In this document: piece by piece, positions 1 to 11,074 of the stretch
Layout of the letters: every line of letters begins with the position of its first letter
Position numbering within the stretch: position 1 is the first letter of the stretch
From: an uncultured Gemmatimonadales bacterium
GTDB lineage: Bacteria > Gemmatimonadota > Gemmatimonadetes > Gemmatimonadales > GWC2-71-9
Direction: 5' to 3'
Length of the DNA: 64,000 nt
Assembly (NCBI GenBank): GCA_963779755.1
Contig: CAVZZO010000003.1
Span: forward strand, 1,664,001-1,728,000
Program-made: the position numbers and the translations under genes
Notes under the pieces: generated by a model
What the model saw: the letters and a program-made list of their open reading frames with translations, nothing else
Told to the model about the DNA's origin: nothing
The model's database searches: none

Positions 1-355
1 CGCCATGGGGGCCGTAGTACCGCTCGTAGAGCCGGAGATCGGACACGCGAAAATCGGCGGCGAGATCGACGATGATACCGGGGCCCGCCTCGTAGACCGA
101 CTCGATCACCCGCGACGACTCCCCATGCTCCAGCGCCAGAAAGACGACATCGCAGCCGGCGGCGGCCATGCCGGCCTCGTCACCGGCAAAGCGCGCGTCG
201 GTCATGCCCGCCAGGCCCGGATGCACCGCCGCCAGCGGCTGGCCCGCCTGGCTCCGGCTGGTGGCCGTCAACTCGGTGACGTCCGGATGCTGGAGCAGCA
301 GGCGGAGCAGCTCCCCGCCGACGAACCCGGCTCCGCCGATTACCGCGACCCTCAC
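1..355 (-). CDS. argC: N-acetyl-gamma-glutamyl-phosphate reductase, 5' part (runs off the window)
   Basis: Not in the ORF track. My translation from GTG at 355 gives MRVAVIGGAGFVGGELLRLLLQHPDV...DVVFLALEHGES...IVDLAADFRV, which are ArgC N-terminal motifs. GTGA overlap with the stop of the upstream gene. Confidence 0.9.
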   Translation of the reverse strand, partial: MRVAVIGGAGFVGGELLRLLLQHPDVTELTATSRSQAGQPLAAVHPGLAGMTDARFAGDEAGMAAAGCDVVFLALEHGESSRVIESVYEAGPGIIVDLAADFRVSDLRLYERYYGPHG

Positions 356-1431
356 GATGTTGCTCCCGCGGGGCGGCCGGCGCGGTCGAGCGCCGCGGTC
401 ACGATTTCCACCAGGCCCGAGGGATCGCGCAGCGCGTTCCGGGATGGCAGCCCCAGCCGGTTCTCGATGTAGCTGCGGCCCACCTCGTTGTCGGTGGCCG
501 GCCCGGTCACCACGGTGATCGACAGGCCGTAGTCCCGCCGCATCAGCTCCGCCGCACCCCAGCAGGCCACCGGGTCGGGCGCCGCCATCACCCAGGCCGC
601 GCCGAGGCCGGCCAGCCCCTCATCGGAAAGAATGTCCTGCACCCCGTATTCCCCGAGAATGCCGTCGCCCAGCTCCGCTACCACGACGTCGGGCCGGGAG
701 GCGGCCAGCCGGTTGAAGAGCCCCCGGGCTACGGGCACCGTCATCCCGGCATGGGTGCTCGCGGCCCCCGCGTCGTTGAAAGTGAGCGCGGCAATGGCCC
801 CGGCATCCTGCATGGCCAGCGCGTCGCGCATGAGCGAGACGCCGGTCAGCTTCGCCGCCGCCACCCGGCGTCCTTCCCGGGCCAGGCCCCGGACAATCTC
901 GGTGGCCGCCGCCGTCTTGCCGGCGTTCATGCAGGTGCCCGCCACGTAGACCACGGGGACACCGGTCTCCAGCCGGTCCGCGGCCGGCACCGCGTGCGCC
1001 CGGATATTGGCCGGCGTGCCGATGCGGTCGCCCAGGTCGGGGAAAGTGAGCACCGCGCCCAGGACCTCCGCGCGGAAGGGAGGCCCGATATCGGGATTGG
1101 CCGAGGTGCACCGGCCCAGAATACCGCCCAGGTTGAGCACCTCGATCTCATTGCCGGGCGAAAGCTCGTCCGGTACCACGCCGGCGTAGCCCCGCAACGC
1201 CCGCCGGCTCCCCAGGGTGCCCGCCAGCACATCGCCGGCGCGCAGCGATACCATGCGCCCACTGGGATCTTCCAGCGTATTGTAGGTCCCCTTCTCGGTC
1301 AGCACCCGGACCGCAAGGATATAACCTTCCCGGCTGACGATCTCCGGGCCGATGATCACTTCGGATGCGAGGTGCGCATTCCGGGTCGACGAGGCAATCC
1401 GGTCCAGCCGGATACGACGGGTATGAACCAT
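352..1431 (-). CDS. DUF1611-like P-loop protein inside the arg operon
   Basis: Motifs GTCMNAGKT, AKLTG, DAGA..FNDAG.ASTH and DVVVAELGDGILG resemble DUF1611-type proteins. Lies 9 bp after argG and is coupled to argC. Confidence 0.7.
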   Translation of the reverse strand: MVHTRRIRLDRIASSTRNAHLASEVIIGPEIVSREGYILAVRVLTEKGTYNTLEDPSGRMVSLRAGDVLAGTLGSRRALRGYAGVVPDELSPGNEIEVLNLGGILGRCTSANPDIGPPFRAEVLGAVLTFPDLGDRIGTPANIRAHAVPAADRLETGVPVVYVAGTCMNAGKTAAATEIVRGLAREGRRVAAAKLTGVSLMRDALAMQDAGAIAALTFNDAGAASTHAGMTVPVARGLFNRLAASRPDVVVAELGDGILGEYGVQDILSDEGLAGLGAAWVMAAPDPVACWGAAELMRRDYGLSITVVTGPATDNEVGRSYIENRLGLPSRNALRDPSGLVEIVTAALDRAGRPAGATS

Positions 1432-1440
1432 GAGAACCGA

Positions 1441-2634
1441 TCAGCGACCGGAGCCGGCCCGCTGCGCGAGAAGGGAAGGAATGGCGGAAACCCGGGCGAA
1501 AGCGCGGGCTTCGTCCCCGCTCCAGAGCCGGTTATCCTCGCCGTAGGTGGCGACCGACGGGTCGAGCAGCGAGAAGGGACTGCGCACCCCGACTACCTGG
1601 AATCGGCCCGGCGCCAGACGCACCCGGGTCTCGCCCGTCACCCGCTGCTGACTGCTGGCGAGCAGGGCCTCGATATCGCGCAGCGCCGGATCGAAATACT
1701 GTCCTTCGTGCAGCCGGTCGCCATAGAAGCGGGCCAGCTGGTCCTTCCAGTAGATCTGCCAGCGGGTGAGCACCAGCTTCTCCAGCTCGCGATGCGCCCC
1801 GATCAGCACCAGCGCCGCGCCCGCTTCGAACCCCACCCGGCCCTTGATGCCCAGCGCCGTCTCGCCCAGGTGTATTCCCCGGCCAATACCATACGCCTGG
1901 GTCAGGCCGGCCAAGGCATCGACCAGGGCGGGACCGGGCTGTTCCGCGCCGTCGAGCGCGGCCGGCAGCCCGTTCGCCCAGGCCAGCACGATCTCCTGCG
2001 GTGCCGGCGCATCGGCCGGCGGGTCCAGCAACTCCGCCGGAGGCCCGGCCCAGGAGTCGTGGGTCCAGCCGCCGCCCCAGGTGGTGCCCCAGCCGCCCCG
2101 ATTCACCGAATAGGCGCCCGCCTGCGCCGGGACCGGCAGGCCGCGCTCCTGGAGATAGGCGATCGCATCCGGTCGCGACAAACGCTGGTCGCGAATGGGG
2201 GTGAGAATCTCGAGCTCAGGCGCCAGGACGCGGAAGGCCACATCGAAGCGGACCTGGTCGTTCCCCGCCCCCGTCGATCCATGGGCGACCGCCGCGGCGC
2301 CGATGGCCCGCGCCGTCTCCACTACCGAGATGGCCTGCTGCGTGCGCTCGGCGGCCACGCTCAGGGGATAGACCTCCCCCCGCAGCACATTGCCCTGAAT
2401 AAGGAAGCGGACGAAACGGTCGTGCACCTGCGCCGTGGCGTCAACCTCGTGGTGCCGGGCGGCGCCCACGGCCAACGCCTGGCGGCGGATCGCCTCCCGT
2501 TCCCCGGGCGAGGCTCCGCCGGTATACACGAACACGGTGTGCACCTCCCAGCCGGCCTCCCGCAGCCGGGGCACACAGTAGGAGGTATCCAGGCCACCGG
2601 AGAAGGCGAGGGCGGCGATTCGCTGAGATTGCAT
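1441..2634 (-). CDS. argG: Argininosuccinate synthase
   Basis: LAFSGGLDTS, AHGSTGAGNDQVRFD and GIKGRVGFEA motifs. Start taken at MQSQRIA (ATG 2634); the longer ORF extension runs through repeats. Confidence 0.95.
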   Translation of the reverse strand: MQSQRIAALAFSGGLDTSYCVPRLREAGWEVHTVFVYTGGASPGEREAIRRQALAVGAARHHEVDATAQVHDRFVRFLIQGNVLRGEVYPLSVAAERTQQAISVVETARAIGAAAVAHGSTGAGNDQVRFDVAFRVLAPELEILTPIRDQRLSRPDAIAYLQERGLPVPAQAGAYSVNRGGWGTTWGGGWTHDSWAGPPAELLDPPADAPAPQEIVLAWANGLPAALDGAEQPGPALVDALAGLTQAYGIGRGIHLGETALGIKGRVGFEAGAALVLIGAHRELEKLVLTRWQIYWKDQLARFYGDRLHEGQYFDPALRDIEALLASSQQRVTGETRVRLAPGRFQVVGVRSPFSLLDPSVATYGEDNRLWSGDEARAFARVSAIPSLLAQRAGSGR

Positions 2635-2636
2635 AG

Positions 2637-2650
2637 TGCATAAGTATGCA
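2637..2650. promoter_or_regulatory. ARG box-like ArgR operator
   Basis: Palindrome TGCAT-AAGT-ATGCA, 2 bp upstream of the argG ATG; matches the TGCAT-N4-ATGCA form of ARG boxes. Confidence 0.7.
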
Positions 2651-2747
2651 ATAGGCCTGGGCCGCTCCGCAAGGCCGGAAACCGAAAGGAGCAAAGGACT
2701 GGGGGGGACGGCAAGGCGGCAGGACGGCAAGACGGCAAGAGCGAGCT

Positions 2748-2854
2748 CGAAGCCGATGCCTCCCGCAGCGCGCGTCAGGAGCGCCCACCGGTGGATGGGG
2801 ATCTGATCGCCGCGAAGCGATCCGTCGGCGCGCGGAGGGAGGCTCGGCGAGGGC
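2748..2854 (+). repeat. Hairpin repeat element A, copy 1
   Basis: GCCGATGCCTCCCGCAGCGCG...CGCGCGGAGGGAGGCTCGGC with complementary ends; near-identical to the reverse complement of 10970-11074. Confidence 0.85.
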
Positions 2855-2875
2855 AAGCGCCAGGGACTGAGCGGG

Positions 2876-2987
2876 AAGCTGCTACGGCGCGAGGGCCGGG
2901 GTTGCCGGCGCAGGCACCACCGAACCGGGGAGTGGCGGGGTGGTATCGGTGCTGCCGGAGCCGGCACCCCGGACCGAGCACCGCGGG
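2876..2987 (+). repeat. Hairpin repeat element B, copy 1
   Basis: ~110 bp near-identical to 4329-4440; inverted arms CCGGGG(T)TGCCGGC / GCCGGCACCCCGG. Confidence 0.85.
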
Positions 2988-3031
2988 CCAGATGCCCCAG
3001 GACTGAGACACTAACGGCTCCGGCCGCCCGA

Positions 3032-3131
3032 CGCCGATGCCTCCCGCAGCGCGCGTATGTGCCTTGGAGACACGCGATGCCCTCTCCCCGGTGGCGCACT
3101 TCAGCGCGCGGAGGGGGGCTCGGCGAGGACG
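3032..3131 (+). repeat. Hairpin repeat element A, variant copy (same arms, different core)
   Basis: CGCCGATGCCTCCCGCAGCGCGCGT...GCGCGCGGAGGGGGGCTCGGCGAGG. Confidence 0.75.
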
Positions 3132-3251
3132 AGCGGGAAGAGGACTGAGGCGAAGCAACTGCGAGCCCAGCGAACACCCGGCAGAAGGATGGTTCCCAAG
3201 GTTCTTGCAGAACCGCCTTCCCCTGTCACTCCGGGACAGTAGACTTCTCGC

Positions 3252-4310
3252 ATGCTGACCACCGCCCTGGTGCTCCTTGCCCTCATCCTCGTCCTGCTGC
3301 TCATAATCCTGCTCCGCGGGGGGCCGGCAGACTCGCTACGGCAGAGCCTGGATGAAATGCGCGCCCGGGTAGACCAGCTGGCCGGTAGCCAGCAGGTCCT
3401 GCCCGGGGCCGTGACCGAGCAGGTCACCGCCCTTTCCACCCTGCTCTCCCGCCAGCTCGAGGCGTCCGATGCCAGCGTCGGCCGCCGGCTGGACGAAACC
3501 GGACGCGCGGTGGCGGACGTGCGCGAGCGACTGGGACAGCTGGCCGAGGCGACCCGGCGGCTGGAGGCGGTGGGCAGGAGCATTACCGAGGTGCAGGATC
3601 TCCTGCGGGTACCGAAGTTGCGCGGGACGCTGGGCGAGGTCTGGCTGGAGGAACTGCTGCGGCAGGTCTTTCCCGCCGGACTCTTCGAAATGCAATATGC
3701 CTTTCAATCGGGCCTCAGGGTGGACGCCGTGATCCGGATCGGGCCCCGACTCGTCCCCATCGACGCCAAGTTCCCGCTGGAAGCCTGCCAGCGCATGCTG
3801 GCCGCCCCCGACCAGGAGGCAGCCCTTCGCGAGCGCCGGGCCTTCCGCCGCTCCCTGCGATCCCGAATCGACGAAATCGCCGACAAGTACATCTGCCCCG
3901 GCGAAGGCACCTTCGATTTCGCCCTGATGTATGTGCCGGCGGAGAACGTCTATTACGAGACCGTGGTGCGCGACGAGCGGCCGGAGGAAGGCGATAGCCT
4001 GCTGGCCTACGCCATGGGCCGGAAGGTCATCCCCGTCTCACCCCATACGTTCTACGCCTATCTCTCCGCCGTGCTGCACGGCCTGAAGGGCCTGCAGGTG
4101 GAGGAGCGCGCCCGGGAGCTACAGGGCGAGTTGGGACGGCTGCAGCAGCTCACCCTCCAGTTTGTCGACAGCTTCCAGAAGGTCGGCGGCCACCTGATGC
4201 ACGCGCAGAAGGCCTGGGAAGCGGCCGGGAAGGAGCACGAACGGCTGGAAGCGAGGCTGGAAGCGCTGACAGGCCTGCGGCTGGAGGAAGGACTGAGGAC
4301 TGAGGACTGA
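3252..4310 (+). CDS. rmuC: DNA recombination protein RmuC family
   Basis: N-terminal TM, coiled coil, PKLRGTLGEVWLE, VPIDAKFPLE, TFDFALMYVPAENVY and VIPVSPHTF motifs. Confidence 0.9.
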   Translation: MLTTALVLLALILVLLLIILLRGGPADSLRQSLDEMRARVDQLAGSQQVLPGAVTEQVTALSTLLSRQLEASDASVGRRLDETGRAVADVRERLGQLAEATRRLEAVGRSITEVQDLLRVPKLRGTLGEVWLEELLRQVFPAGLFEMQYAFQSGLRVDAVIRIGPRLVPIDAKFPLEACQRMLAAPDQEAALRERRAFRRSLRSRIDEIADKYICPGEGTFDFALMYVPAENVYYETVVRDERPEEGDSLLAYAMGRKVIPVSPHTFYAYLSAVLHGLKGLQVEERARELQGELGRLQQLTLQFVDSFQKVGGHLMHAQKAWEAAGKEHERLEARLEALTGLRLEEGLRTED

Positions 4311-4486
4311 GGACTGAGGACTGAACGGAAAGCTACCACCGGTGCGAGGGCCCGGGGTTGCCGGCAGGCACCACCGAACCGGGGAGTGGCGGGGTGGTAT
4401 CGGTGCTGCCGGAACCGGCACCCCGGACCGAGCACCGCGCACGAGAGGCCCGAGGCTGAGGCCTGGGGCCTGAGGCCTCAGTCCTT
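4290..4486. repeat. GACTGAG heptamer array, element B copy 2 (4329-4440) and inverted CTCAGTCC arm
   Basis: About five GGACTGA units overlap the rmuC stop; inverted arm at ~4477-4485; sits between convergent genes. Confidence 0.85.
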
Positions 4487-4487
4487 T

Positions 4488-5147
4488 CTACTTCCGGTGC
4501 AGCTCCATCCCGAACCCAGCGTGAAGATGCAGTGCCAGGTTGGGGACGCTGGCGTGCCCGTCGGCGACCGGAATGCGGACGTAGGATGCCGATCCCCGCG
4601 CGTCCAGGCTGACGAAGACGATCTCAGGAACCAGATAGAAGCGGTGGCTCAGTGTGGCCATGGCCGTGGCCCCGGACAGGAAATAGCCGTCGAAAAGAAA
4701 GCCGCGATTGCGGTCGACTTTCTGATCGTGGATCCGGATCCGGGGATACGTAATCACCGGCCCGGCGCCCAGGCTGTACACCCAGTTCCCCCGCCGCCAG
4801 CCGCGGGAGAGGGTGATCATGTTGAACCCGTTGGTGATGCTGAACTCCTGCACCACGGCGGGACGCCGGGTGGCGTACACCTTGTGGTGGGTAAAATCCA
4901 CCAGCCACCCCTTGTTGTGCTTCCAGAATCCGATCCGCCCGGCGTAATACCAGGTGTCCTTGAAGGGATAATTGCGGAAATGCGGATTCCAGTGCAGGTC
5001 AGGATTGTGCTGCAGAGCCACACTGATCCGTATTGGCGCATCCAGCGAGGTCCCGCCGAACAACTCGAGCGTGACCTGCGCCCGGAGCGCTGAGGGGAAA
5101 ATCGCTGACAGAAACAGCACCAGCGCCGCTCGGCGCGAGTGGGACAT
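4488..5147 (-). CDS. Secreted / outer-membrane beta-barrel-like hypothetical protein
   Basis: Signal peptide ending ALRA-Q; aromatic, amphipathic beta-strand pattern. Confidence 0.65.
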   Translation of the reverse strand: MSHSRRAALVLFLSAIFPSALRAQVTLELFGGTSLDAPIRISVALQHNPDLHWNPHFRNYPFKDTWYYAGRIGFWKHNKGWLVDFTHHKVYATRRPAVVQEFSITNGFNMITLSRGWRRGNWVYSLGAGPVITYPRIRIHDQKVDRNRGFLFDGYFLSGATAMATLSHRFYLVPEIVFVSLDARGSASYVRIPVADGHASVPNLALHLHAGFGMELHRK

Positions 5148-10969: not shown

Positions 10970-11074
10970 GCCCTCGCCGAACCTCCCTCCGCACGCCGAC
11001 GGATCGCTTCGCGGCGATTCGATCCCCATCCACCGGTGGGCGCTCCTGACGCGCTGCGGGAGGCATCGGCTTCG
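10970..11074 (-). repeat. Hairpin repeat element A, copy inside the bcr operon
   Basis: Reverse complement is near-identical to 2748-2854. Confidence 0.85.

Follow-up and report, generated by a model that had tools for sequence, protein, structure and literature searches.

How is glutamate acylated in a bacterium whose arginine operon covers each step of the pathway except that one? The question is raised by a stretch of 64,000 nucleotides (nt) from an uncultured Gemmatimonadales bacterium (GenBank assembly GCA_963779755.1, contig CAVZZO010000003.1, positions 1,664,001 to 1,728,000; G000:C3:1664001-1728000 in the numbering used here), the whole of which we call the window. Between argG and argC of this operon lies an open reading frame (ORF) that we call gene X, and we consider it likely that its product forms N-acyl-glutamate, probably N-succinyl-glutamate. 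An initial annotation of the same DNA had cast the gene as an unrecognised replacement, within the arginine operon, for the N-acetylglutamate synthase ArgA. The replacement part of that proposal fits the position in the operon, the lack of ArgJ and of full-length ArgA, and the mutual exclusion of gene X and ArgJ across the 151 genomes sampled from the phylum. Succinyl, however, is a more probable acyl group than acetyl, and the word unrecognised has to go, the same prediction having been printed on 12 Nov 2026 (GapMind 2026, in its passages on this family). Gene X thus appears to be the Gemmatimonadota representative of a family for which this role is already a published prediction.

The arginine operon and its missing first enzyme

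Read past the window edge, the operon has the order argG-X-argC-argD-argF'-argB-argE(M20)-argH, with an ArgR homologue directly after it. The two neighbors of gene X are readily identified: argG by its matches to Arginosuc_synth (128 bits) and Arginosuc_syn_C (123 bits) in Pfam, and argC by 105 bits to TIGR01850 over the 118-amino-acid part that lies within the window (the whole gene is G000:C3:1663336-1664355, an ORF that reads past the window edge). The junctions are tight, just as the initial annotation had described them: 9 nt separate the argG stop codon (1441-1443) from the gene X start codon (1429-1431), and the gene X stop codon TGA (352-354) overlaps the argC GTG start (353-355), so that the minus strand reads GTGA. 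Gene X is confirmed as a genuine conserved gene and no chance ORF, because 5069 database proteins match it at E≤1e-3, together with 1442 50%-identity clusters; all of the 5069 are unnamed or called 'hypothetical'. A route by way of a LysW-type carrier was considered and set aside, as no small ORF fits the 9-nt and overlapping junctions around gene X; no wider search for such a carrier was made.

The operon is headed by a palindrome that resembles an ARG box (TGCATACTTATGCA; Table 1) and is enclosed by an outer inverted repeat, ATTGCATA / TATGCAAT. With at most one mismatch allowed, the 64-kb window contains no second such site, and 100 shuffles give an expectation of 0. When up to two mismatches are tolerated, 64 of 74 related loci have a site between -160 and +30 relative to argG, compared with 9 sites in all the other 953,747 nt of these loci. 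The earlier statement that gene X lies downstream of an ARG box is therefore correct in the sense that a conserved palindrome stands upstream of argG, the first gene of the operon. The genome has two ArgR homologues (G000:C3:1657255-1657458 and C3:1170696-1170884; 72.6 and 69.6 bits to Arg_repressor_C), one of which is that directly past argH at the operon end.

Is the position of gene X conserved? The 592 matching loci, from species-representative genomes, span Gemmatimonadota, Myxococcota, Acidobacteriota, Planctomycetota, Elusimicrobiota and others; we compared the closest 80 of them, which are kin and not independent samples and come from Gemmatimonadales, Myxococcota, Acidobacteriota, Planctomycetia and Elusimicrobia. 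Gene X is followed directly by argC in 80/80 of these and preceded directly by argG in 75/80, and most have the full argG-X-argC-D-F'-B-E-H order; a shorter X-argC-argD-argB arrangement is found in genome G086, whose gene X is 49.5% identical. An ArgE-like M20 hydrolase gene is present in 62 of the 80 loci as well as in the operon studied here.

No other enzyme for the first step was found in the bacterium's own genome, which is 96.97% complete: a search for ArgJ in this genome was negative, and the ArgA model matched nothing above its cut-off, ArgB itself being the best match (a PF04768 search was uninformative, its control having matched nowhere). Among 151 genomes of the phylum, gene X (E≤1e-30) is present in 47 and ArgJ in 53, and none has both; argC is present in 120, all 47 gene X carriers included. 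Of 41 relatives, 14 carry gene X and 10 carry ArgJ, again with no genome that has both; ArgA above cut-off occurs in 0/41, and a short GNAT domain like that of N-acetylglutamate synthase (NAGS; E≤1e-10) in 13/41, only one of them (G035) among the 14 gene X genomes. The two samples overlap and consist of kin, so that these counts overstate the number of independent events, and they include genomes flagged as unpublished (G014, G082, which is one of the 47 gene X carriers, and G119). The check suggested earlier, whether genomes with gene X in the arginine operon lack argA and argJ, thus came out in favor of the replacement idea (ArgJ co-presence 0/151 and 0/41; ArgA above cut-off 0/41). Gene X is like ArgA (an amino-acid-kinase domain plus GNAT), the short GNAT-type NAGS and ArgJ in its proposed step, operon logic and ArgR control, and unlike them in that it has no sequence or fold relation to any of them; its distribution and that of ArgJ are mutually exclusive. 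A GNAT-type N-succinylglutamate synthase has reportedly been proposed for Bacteroidota.

Two side observations came from these samples. The gene X copy of G035 is a divergent paralogue outside the arginine cluster (L127:6874-7947, G035:C21; 357 amino acids, 34% identical), which lies directly upstream of a gene for an 800-amino-acid protein that contains a poly-gamma-glutamate CapA-type domain (PGA_cap) and weakly matches M36 peptidases, and then of an ABC exporter; this hints at other glutamate-linked chemistry in the wider family. In addition, 31 of the 151 genomes have no argC at E≤1e-30, although most are at least 90% complete, and these have no ArgJ or gene X either, with one exception; it is possible that they are arginine auxotrophs.

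Which acyl group does the pathway use? The ArgF' encoded in the operon scores 324 bits to the Xanthomonas N-acetylornithine transcarbamylase (AOTCase), and its Val92 aligns with the substituted residue of the E92V and E92A variants in the PDB. At AOTCase position 92 the 65 ArgF' proteins of related loci have valine in 62 and isoleucine, threonine and alanine in one each; glutamate is found in none. Replacement of Glu92 by A, P, S or V is reported to switch AOTCase to N-succinylornithine (Shi et al. 2007, as relayed in the GapMind 2026 S1B Text). The valine thus points to a pathway that is probably the succinyl variant, and to N-succinyl- rather than N-acetyl-glutamate as the more likely product of gene X.

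The same role had been predicted for the Steroidobacter protein ACG33_RS14135 (A0A127FCT3). In the passages of GapMind 2026 that treat its family, this hypothetical protein is said to be 'virtually always' in arginine operons (109 genera) and never to co-occur with a Pseudomonas-type ArgA; a weak Foldseek likeness to DgcN (7XRJ) with a root mean square deviation (rmsd) of 5.6 Å is given, and A, P, S or V at position 92 in 90% of 70 neighboring ArgF' proteins. Gene X agrees on each of these points: it is clustered with argB/C/D/F'/E/G/H/R, next to argC without exception in the loci compared, apart from the canonical first enzymes and beside an ArgF' with Val92, and the Foldseek rmsd to 7XRJ is 5.7 Å here; clusters that look alike are mostly from Pseudomonadota. 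It differs in that our copy is from Gemmatimonadota and its operon has an ArgE-like gene, Steroidobacter being, in the same passages, also without a recognisable ArgE (GapMind 2026), and in that Pseudomonas-type ArgA was the enzyme compared in the paper whereas ArgJ is the complementary one in this phylum. No Steroidobacter record is among the best 80 of the 592 gene X loci. Gene X and A0A127FCT3 very probably belong to the same family, as judged from matching descriptions and not from sequence.

Fold and relatives of the gene X protein

Scans of the gene X protein against Pfam and NCBIfam found no family at E≤0.01, in keeping with the initial annotation, which had seen no ArgA, ArgJ or GNAT signature in it. 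The weak Pfam matches at E≤10 were DUF1611 (the best), then CbiA and MobB, and a single-sequence search of the PDB gave a chance match only. In an alignment of 60 family members (29-55% identity) the residues P87, G171, K172, K194 and E253 are invariant; the weak Pfam matches of these 60 sequences are to CbiA in 26, MobB in 23, DUF1611 in 15 (E≤0.01) and AAA_26 in 6. An AlphaFold2 model has two domains and is of high predicted quality (predicted local distance difference test score, pLDDT, 96.8; predicted template modelling score 0.93). Table 1 lists the parts of the protein and the other features of the locus.

Table 1. Positions in the window of gene X, its domains and conserved residues, and adjacent features
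Feature	Position	Strand	Remarks
Gene X, candidate non-GNAT N-acyl(succinyl)-L-glutamate synthase	352..1431	(-)	ATG-start ORF, 359 amino acids
N-terminal all-beta domain, residues 1-150 (strands to about 130, then linker)	982..1431	(-)	DSSP: strands and one short helix
C-terminal SIMIBI-class P-loop domain, about residues 153-354	370..975	(-)	DUF1611 / dethiobiotin-synthetase type; VIA-align, hhalign
Walker A GTCMNAGKT, residues 165-173	913..939	(-)	G171, K172 invariant; T173 at least 90% conserved; aligns with BioD GTDTGVGKT
Lys194 (AAKLTGV)	850..852	(-)	Invariant (60/60); aligns with invariant Lys of BioD 'VKPV'; Gly in DUF1611
Glu253 (VVAELGDG)	673..675	(-)	Invariant; aligns with Glu of BioD 'VEGAGG' and DUF1611 'VEGQGS'
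argC, 5' part (N-acetyl-gamma-glutamyl-phosphate reductase)	2..355	(-)	Runs off the window; TIGR01850, PF01118
argG, argininosuccinate synthase	1441..2634	(-)	397 amino acids; first gene of the operon; Pfam PF00764 and PF20979; NCBIfam argG models
ARG-box-like palindrome TGCATACTTATGCA	2637-2650	.	3 nt upstream of the argG ATG

The model was compared by VIA-align with 48,161 PDB representatives. The top match of the P-loop domain is the DUF1611 structure 2g0t (Z 17.5, rmsd 2.8, 180 aligned residues), and it is followed by 2obn (DUF1611, Z 15.9), 1a82 (E. coli dethiobiotin synthetase, DTBS, Z 15.7), 8zkc (ApbC, Z 15.5) and 7xrj (DgcN, Z 15.2); Foldseek places the domain in the matching fold class. 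The Walker-type motif that had been noticed earlier is indeed present, at residues 165-173. The N-terminal domain, which has no Pfam match in residues 1-150, holds a conserved GxLGxRxALxGYxGxVP stretch in which R76 and G84 are at least 90% conserved, in addition to the invariant P87. When it was modelled alone (pLDDT 86.2) and compared with the same representatives, the best Z was 3.8 and no chain reached Z≥5; the top match was to a LexA/UmuD-like fold, which we rejected as a name for the domain since Z 3.8 is too low for naming a fold. Gene X is a distinct family, with a P-loop domain from the DTBS/DUF1611 branch.

How close is it to DUF1611 and DgcN? PF07755 (DUF1611) matches only residues 155-195 of the protein, with E=0.015 and a score of 15.2 bits where the cut-off is 25, and hhalign of the gene X family with the true DUF1611 proteins of the phylum gives 41.5% (E=2.7e-4, 178 columns, residues 152-351). 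The likeness consists of the same P-loop fold (Z 15.2-17.5), of the aligned Walker A, hhhhEG and C-terminal GLPA motifs and, if the prediction is right, of the amino group of glutamate as substrate. The differences are an all-beta N-terminal domain (the 41 chains that match it with Z≥2 include none from DUF1611, a result that still allows a relationship), a glycine in DUF1611 where gene X has K194, and D-glutamate and acetyl as the substrates of DgcN versus the predicted L-glutamate and succinyl. By the Pfam criterion gene X is outside the DUF1611 family. The label 'DUF1611-like' of the initial annotation survives as a remote resemblance of the P-loop domain; as a family assignment it does not, with a score below the Pfam cut-off, the low hhalign value, a separate true DUF1611 gene in the genome and a BioD match that is at least as good. 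That DgcN acetylates D-glutamate, as stated in the initial annotation, agrees with its name in the PDB entry 7xrj ('N-acetyltransferase DgcN-25328') and with the wording 'D-glutamate acetyltransferase' in the passages on this family (GapMind 2026).

The true DUF1611 gene is G000:C3:721840-722946 (-), in locus L122; it encodes 368 amino acids, scores 252.5 bits to PF07755 and is followed by an ORF for a protein like FAD-type oxidoreductases, and no racemase gene was found among the ORFs of at least 200 amino acids within about 5 kb. Such genes above the Pfam cut-off are present in 100 of the 151 genomes of the phylum.

The comparison with dethiobiotin synthetase (BioD) gave a higher score: hhalign of the gene X family with the BioD proteins of the phylum yields 92.5% (E=4.9e-7, 101 columns), a value not strictly comparable with that for DUF1611, as the effective sequence number (Neff) of the DUF1611 alignment is 1.9 and the alignment with BioD extends over just the N-terminal half of the domain. 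K172, K194 and E253, each present in 60/60 gene X family members, align with the residues K11, K33 and E111 that are invariant in the BioD alignment. HMMER places residues 5-38 of E. coli DTBS on positions 152-185 of the gene X profile, and if this alignment is ungapped DTBS residue 37 would fall on K194. This correspondence with DTBS residues rests on the HMMER coordinates and on the hhalign comparison with BioD of the phylum; a low-diversity profile of the C-terminal domain, searched against the PDB, gave spurious matches only and no DTBS alignment. In DTBS, Lys15 and Lys37 have a catalytic role. Gene X therefore resembles BioD in the GTxxxxGKT motif, the second lysine and the EGxGG-type glutamate, in addition to the fold, and differs from it in having no match to the BioD family models of NCBIfam, an extra N-terminal beta domain and the context of an arginine operon. 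A TIGR00347 search of the bacterium's own genome found nothing, gene X included, and the genome is thus one without BioD.

Reaction chemistry and competing explanations

From the above we infer the following reaction, acyl donor and roles of residues and domains. Gene X would N-acylate L-glutamate, most likely to N-succinyl-L-glutamate, and so replace the missing ArgA or ArgJ; the N-acylglutamate would then pass through ArgB, ArgC, ArgD, an ArgF' of the N-succinylornithine type, the M20 deacylase ArgE, ArgG and ArgH, with all of these enzymes made from one ArgR-controlled operon. By analogy with DgcN, the one characterised relative with glutamate as its substrate, the acyl donor would be succinyl-CoA; the nucleotide portion of this CoA ester would be held by the P-loop domain, and R76 and P87 of the beta domain peculiar to the family would help to hold the glutamate. 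We put forward such a succinyl-CoA transfer in the manner of DgcN as our preferred but tentative choice of chemistry.

Several points weigh against this view. All of the functional evidence is contextual; the role is listed as not experimentally confirmed in the published passages on the family (GapMind 2026), and the identity of gene X with that family rests on matching descriptions. The likeness to DgcN is remote, not only in the two profile scores given above (15.2 bits against 25, and 41.5%) but also by Foldseek (7xrj, E=1.4e-4, rmsd 5.7). BioD beats DUF1611 in the profile comparison (92.5%), and both catalytic-type lysines and the glutamate are kept, a set of residues that appears to fit ATP chemistry rather than CoA transfer. 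The phyletic counts are inflated by kinship, and 21 of the 120 argC-bearing genomes have neither gene X nor ArgJ. Two GNAT proteins of the bacterium's own genome give weak matches in the search for first enzymes, and the better of these, an ArsN2-like protein (124.1 bits where the cut-off is 125, and 44 bits to the model of short amino-acid N-acetyltransferases), could in principle acylate glutamate. Finally, gene fusions, which we had considered as functional evidence, were largely rejected as such: the seven longer forms are singletons joined to operon neighbors (argC, argG, or argG plus argD) and are probably the result of read-through or assembly errors, one of them (P0213) having long low-complexity stretches and looking frameshifted.

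Three observations belong beside these points. At least some of the 21 genomes carry a short GNAT gene next to argB or argC (for example G037). The gene for the ArsN2-like GNAT (G000:C1:1789780-1790316) adjoins genes for the small [2Fe-2S] and large subunits of a molybdo-hydroxylase, and not arsenic-resistance or arginine genes. One fusion, the single case of the 626-amino-acid metagenomic protein P0221, looks genuine; in it the X domain is joined to an ArgB/ArgA-like amino-acid-kinase domain (127 bits to argB, cut-off 151), in which the usual K-G-G loop reads K-I-A, and the order of the domains is the reverse of the classical ArgA layout of kinase plus catalytic domain.

Could the reaction be a ligation instead? 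The operon and phyletic context applies equally to a gene X that is an ATP-dependent ligase of succinate (or another small acid) and L-glutamate, in which an acyl phosphate would be formed on a DTBS-type site (K172, K194 and E253) and no CoA thioester would take part. The 92.5% hhalign match to BioD argues for this, with the three residues falling on the P-loop lysine, the 'VKPV' lysine and the 'VEGAGG' glutamate of BioD, as do the glycine in the K194 column of the DUF1611 alignment and the Z values of DTBS and DgcN (15.7 for 1a82 against 15.2 for 7xrj). These arguments are blunted by the limitation of the BioD alignment to the N-terminal half of the domain, by hhalign runs that are not directly comparable, and by an equally conceivable role of the conserved lysine in binding the carboxylate of a substrate; moreover, DgcN, the one characterised relative that uses glutamate, is reported to be an acetyltransferase. 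To our knowledge, all known N-acylglutamate synthases use CoA esters, which counts against a ligase and for transfer from succinyl-CoA. On balance we think a ligase unlikely. If it were one, gene X would carry out a new type of reaction for the first step of arginine synthesis, and would be a relative of the acetyltransferase DgcN with a different chemistry.

It is distinctly improbable, in our estimate, that gene X is a non-catalytic P-loop NTPase, either an accessory in metal insertion or assembly of the M20 deacylase or another arginine enzyme or a regulator, and that a GNAT such as the ArsN2-like protein performs the acylation. The SIMIBI class does contain metallochaperones and assembly ATPases, of which ApbC, HypB and UreG match the gene X model with Z 13.7-15.5, and the GNAT does have its 44 bits to models of short amino-acid N-acetyltransferases; however, the best structural matches of gene X are enzymes of the DTBS/DUF1611 branch and not G3E GTPases, the GNAT has ArsN2 as its best match and lies beside molybdo-hydroxylase genes rather than arginine genes, and neither the strict exclusion of ArgJ nor a fixed slot beside argC is expected of a chaperone.

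We know of no P-loop transacylase of the recycling kind, which counts against the last reading. The idea that gene X, like the ornithine acetyltransferase ArgJ, moves succinyl groups from N-succinyl-ornithine or -citrulline back onto glutamate, with de novo acylation occurring elsewhere, is the least probable of all: it would account for the strict exclusion of gene X and ArgJ (0/151 and 0/41 with both) and for a Steroidobacter without recognisable ArgE (GapMind 2026, same passages), but the ArgE-like M20 hydrolase in the operon and in 62/80 loci already covers deacylation, and a primer source of N-acylglutamate would be required, of which the searches for ArgJ, ArgA and NAGS found none.

The proposed assignment of gene X as an N-acylglutamate synthase matters in that many genomes have long shown a gap at the start of arginine synthesis. 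Should this family close the gap, automated annotation would no longer label hundreds of species as arginine auxotrophs, and glutamate acylation would have arisen on a P-loop scaffold that has no relation to GNAT or ArgJ. Beyond the printed prediction, the present locus adds a different phylum and ArgJ as the complementary enzyme, and the distinct N-terminal domain and DTBS-type residues make the question of the acyl donor a testable one.

The spacer upstream of argG

The 600-nt spacer 5' of argG is composed of dispersed intergenic repeats (window 2745-3135, and also 4364-4455). One of these, a 92-nt unit at 2910-3001, has a 93% copy at 4364-4455 and is matched about 10 times by blastn across the genome. 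A second unit, of ~115 nt, forms tandem arrays elsewhere (for example at C3:1025091-1026108 and C3:740634-741093) and has a further copy in the window at ~10970-11074. The repeats of the spacer may be similar to repetitive extragenic palindromes (REP) or miniature inverted-repeat transposable elements (MITE). Downstream of the ORF at 3252-4310 there is a run of GGACTGA heptamers (GGACTGAGGACTGAGGACTGAG), which makes up one of the two arms of an imperfect inverted repeat of 41 nt (73% complementary; window 4278-4322 and 4456-4496).

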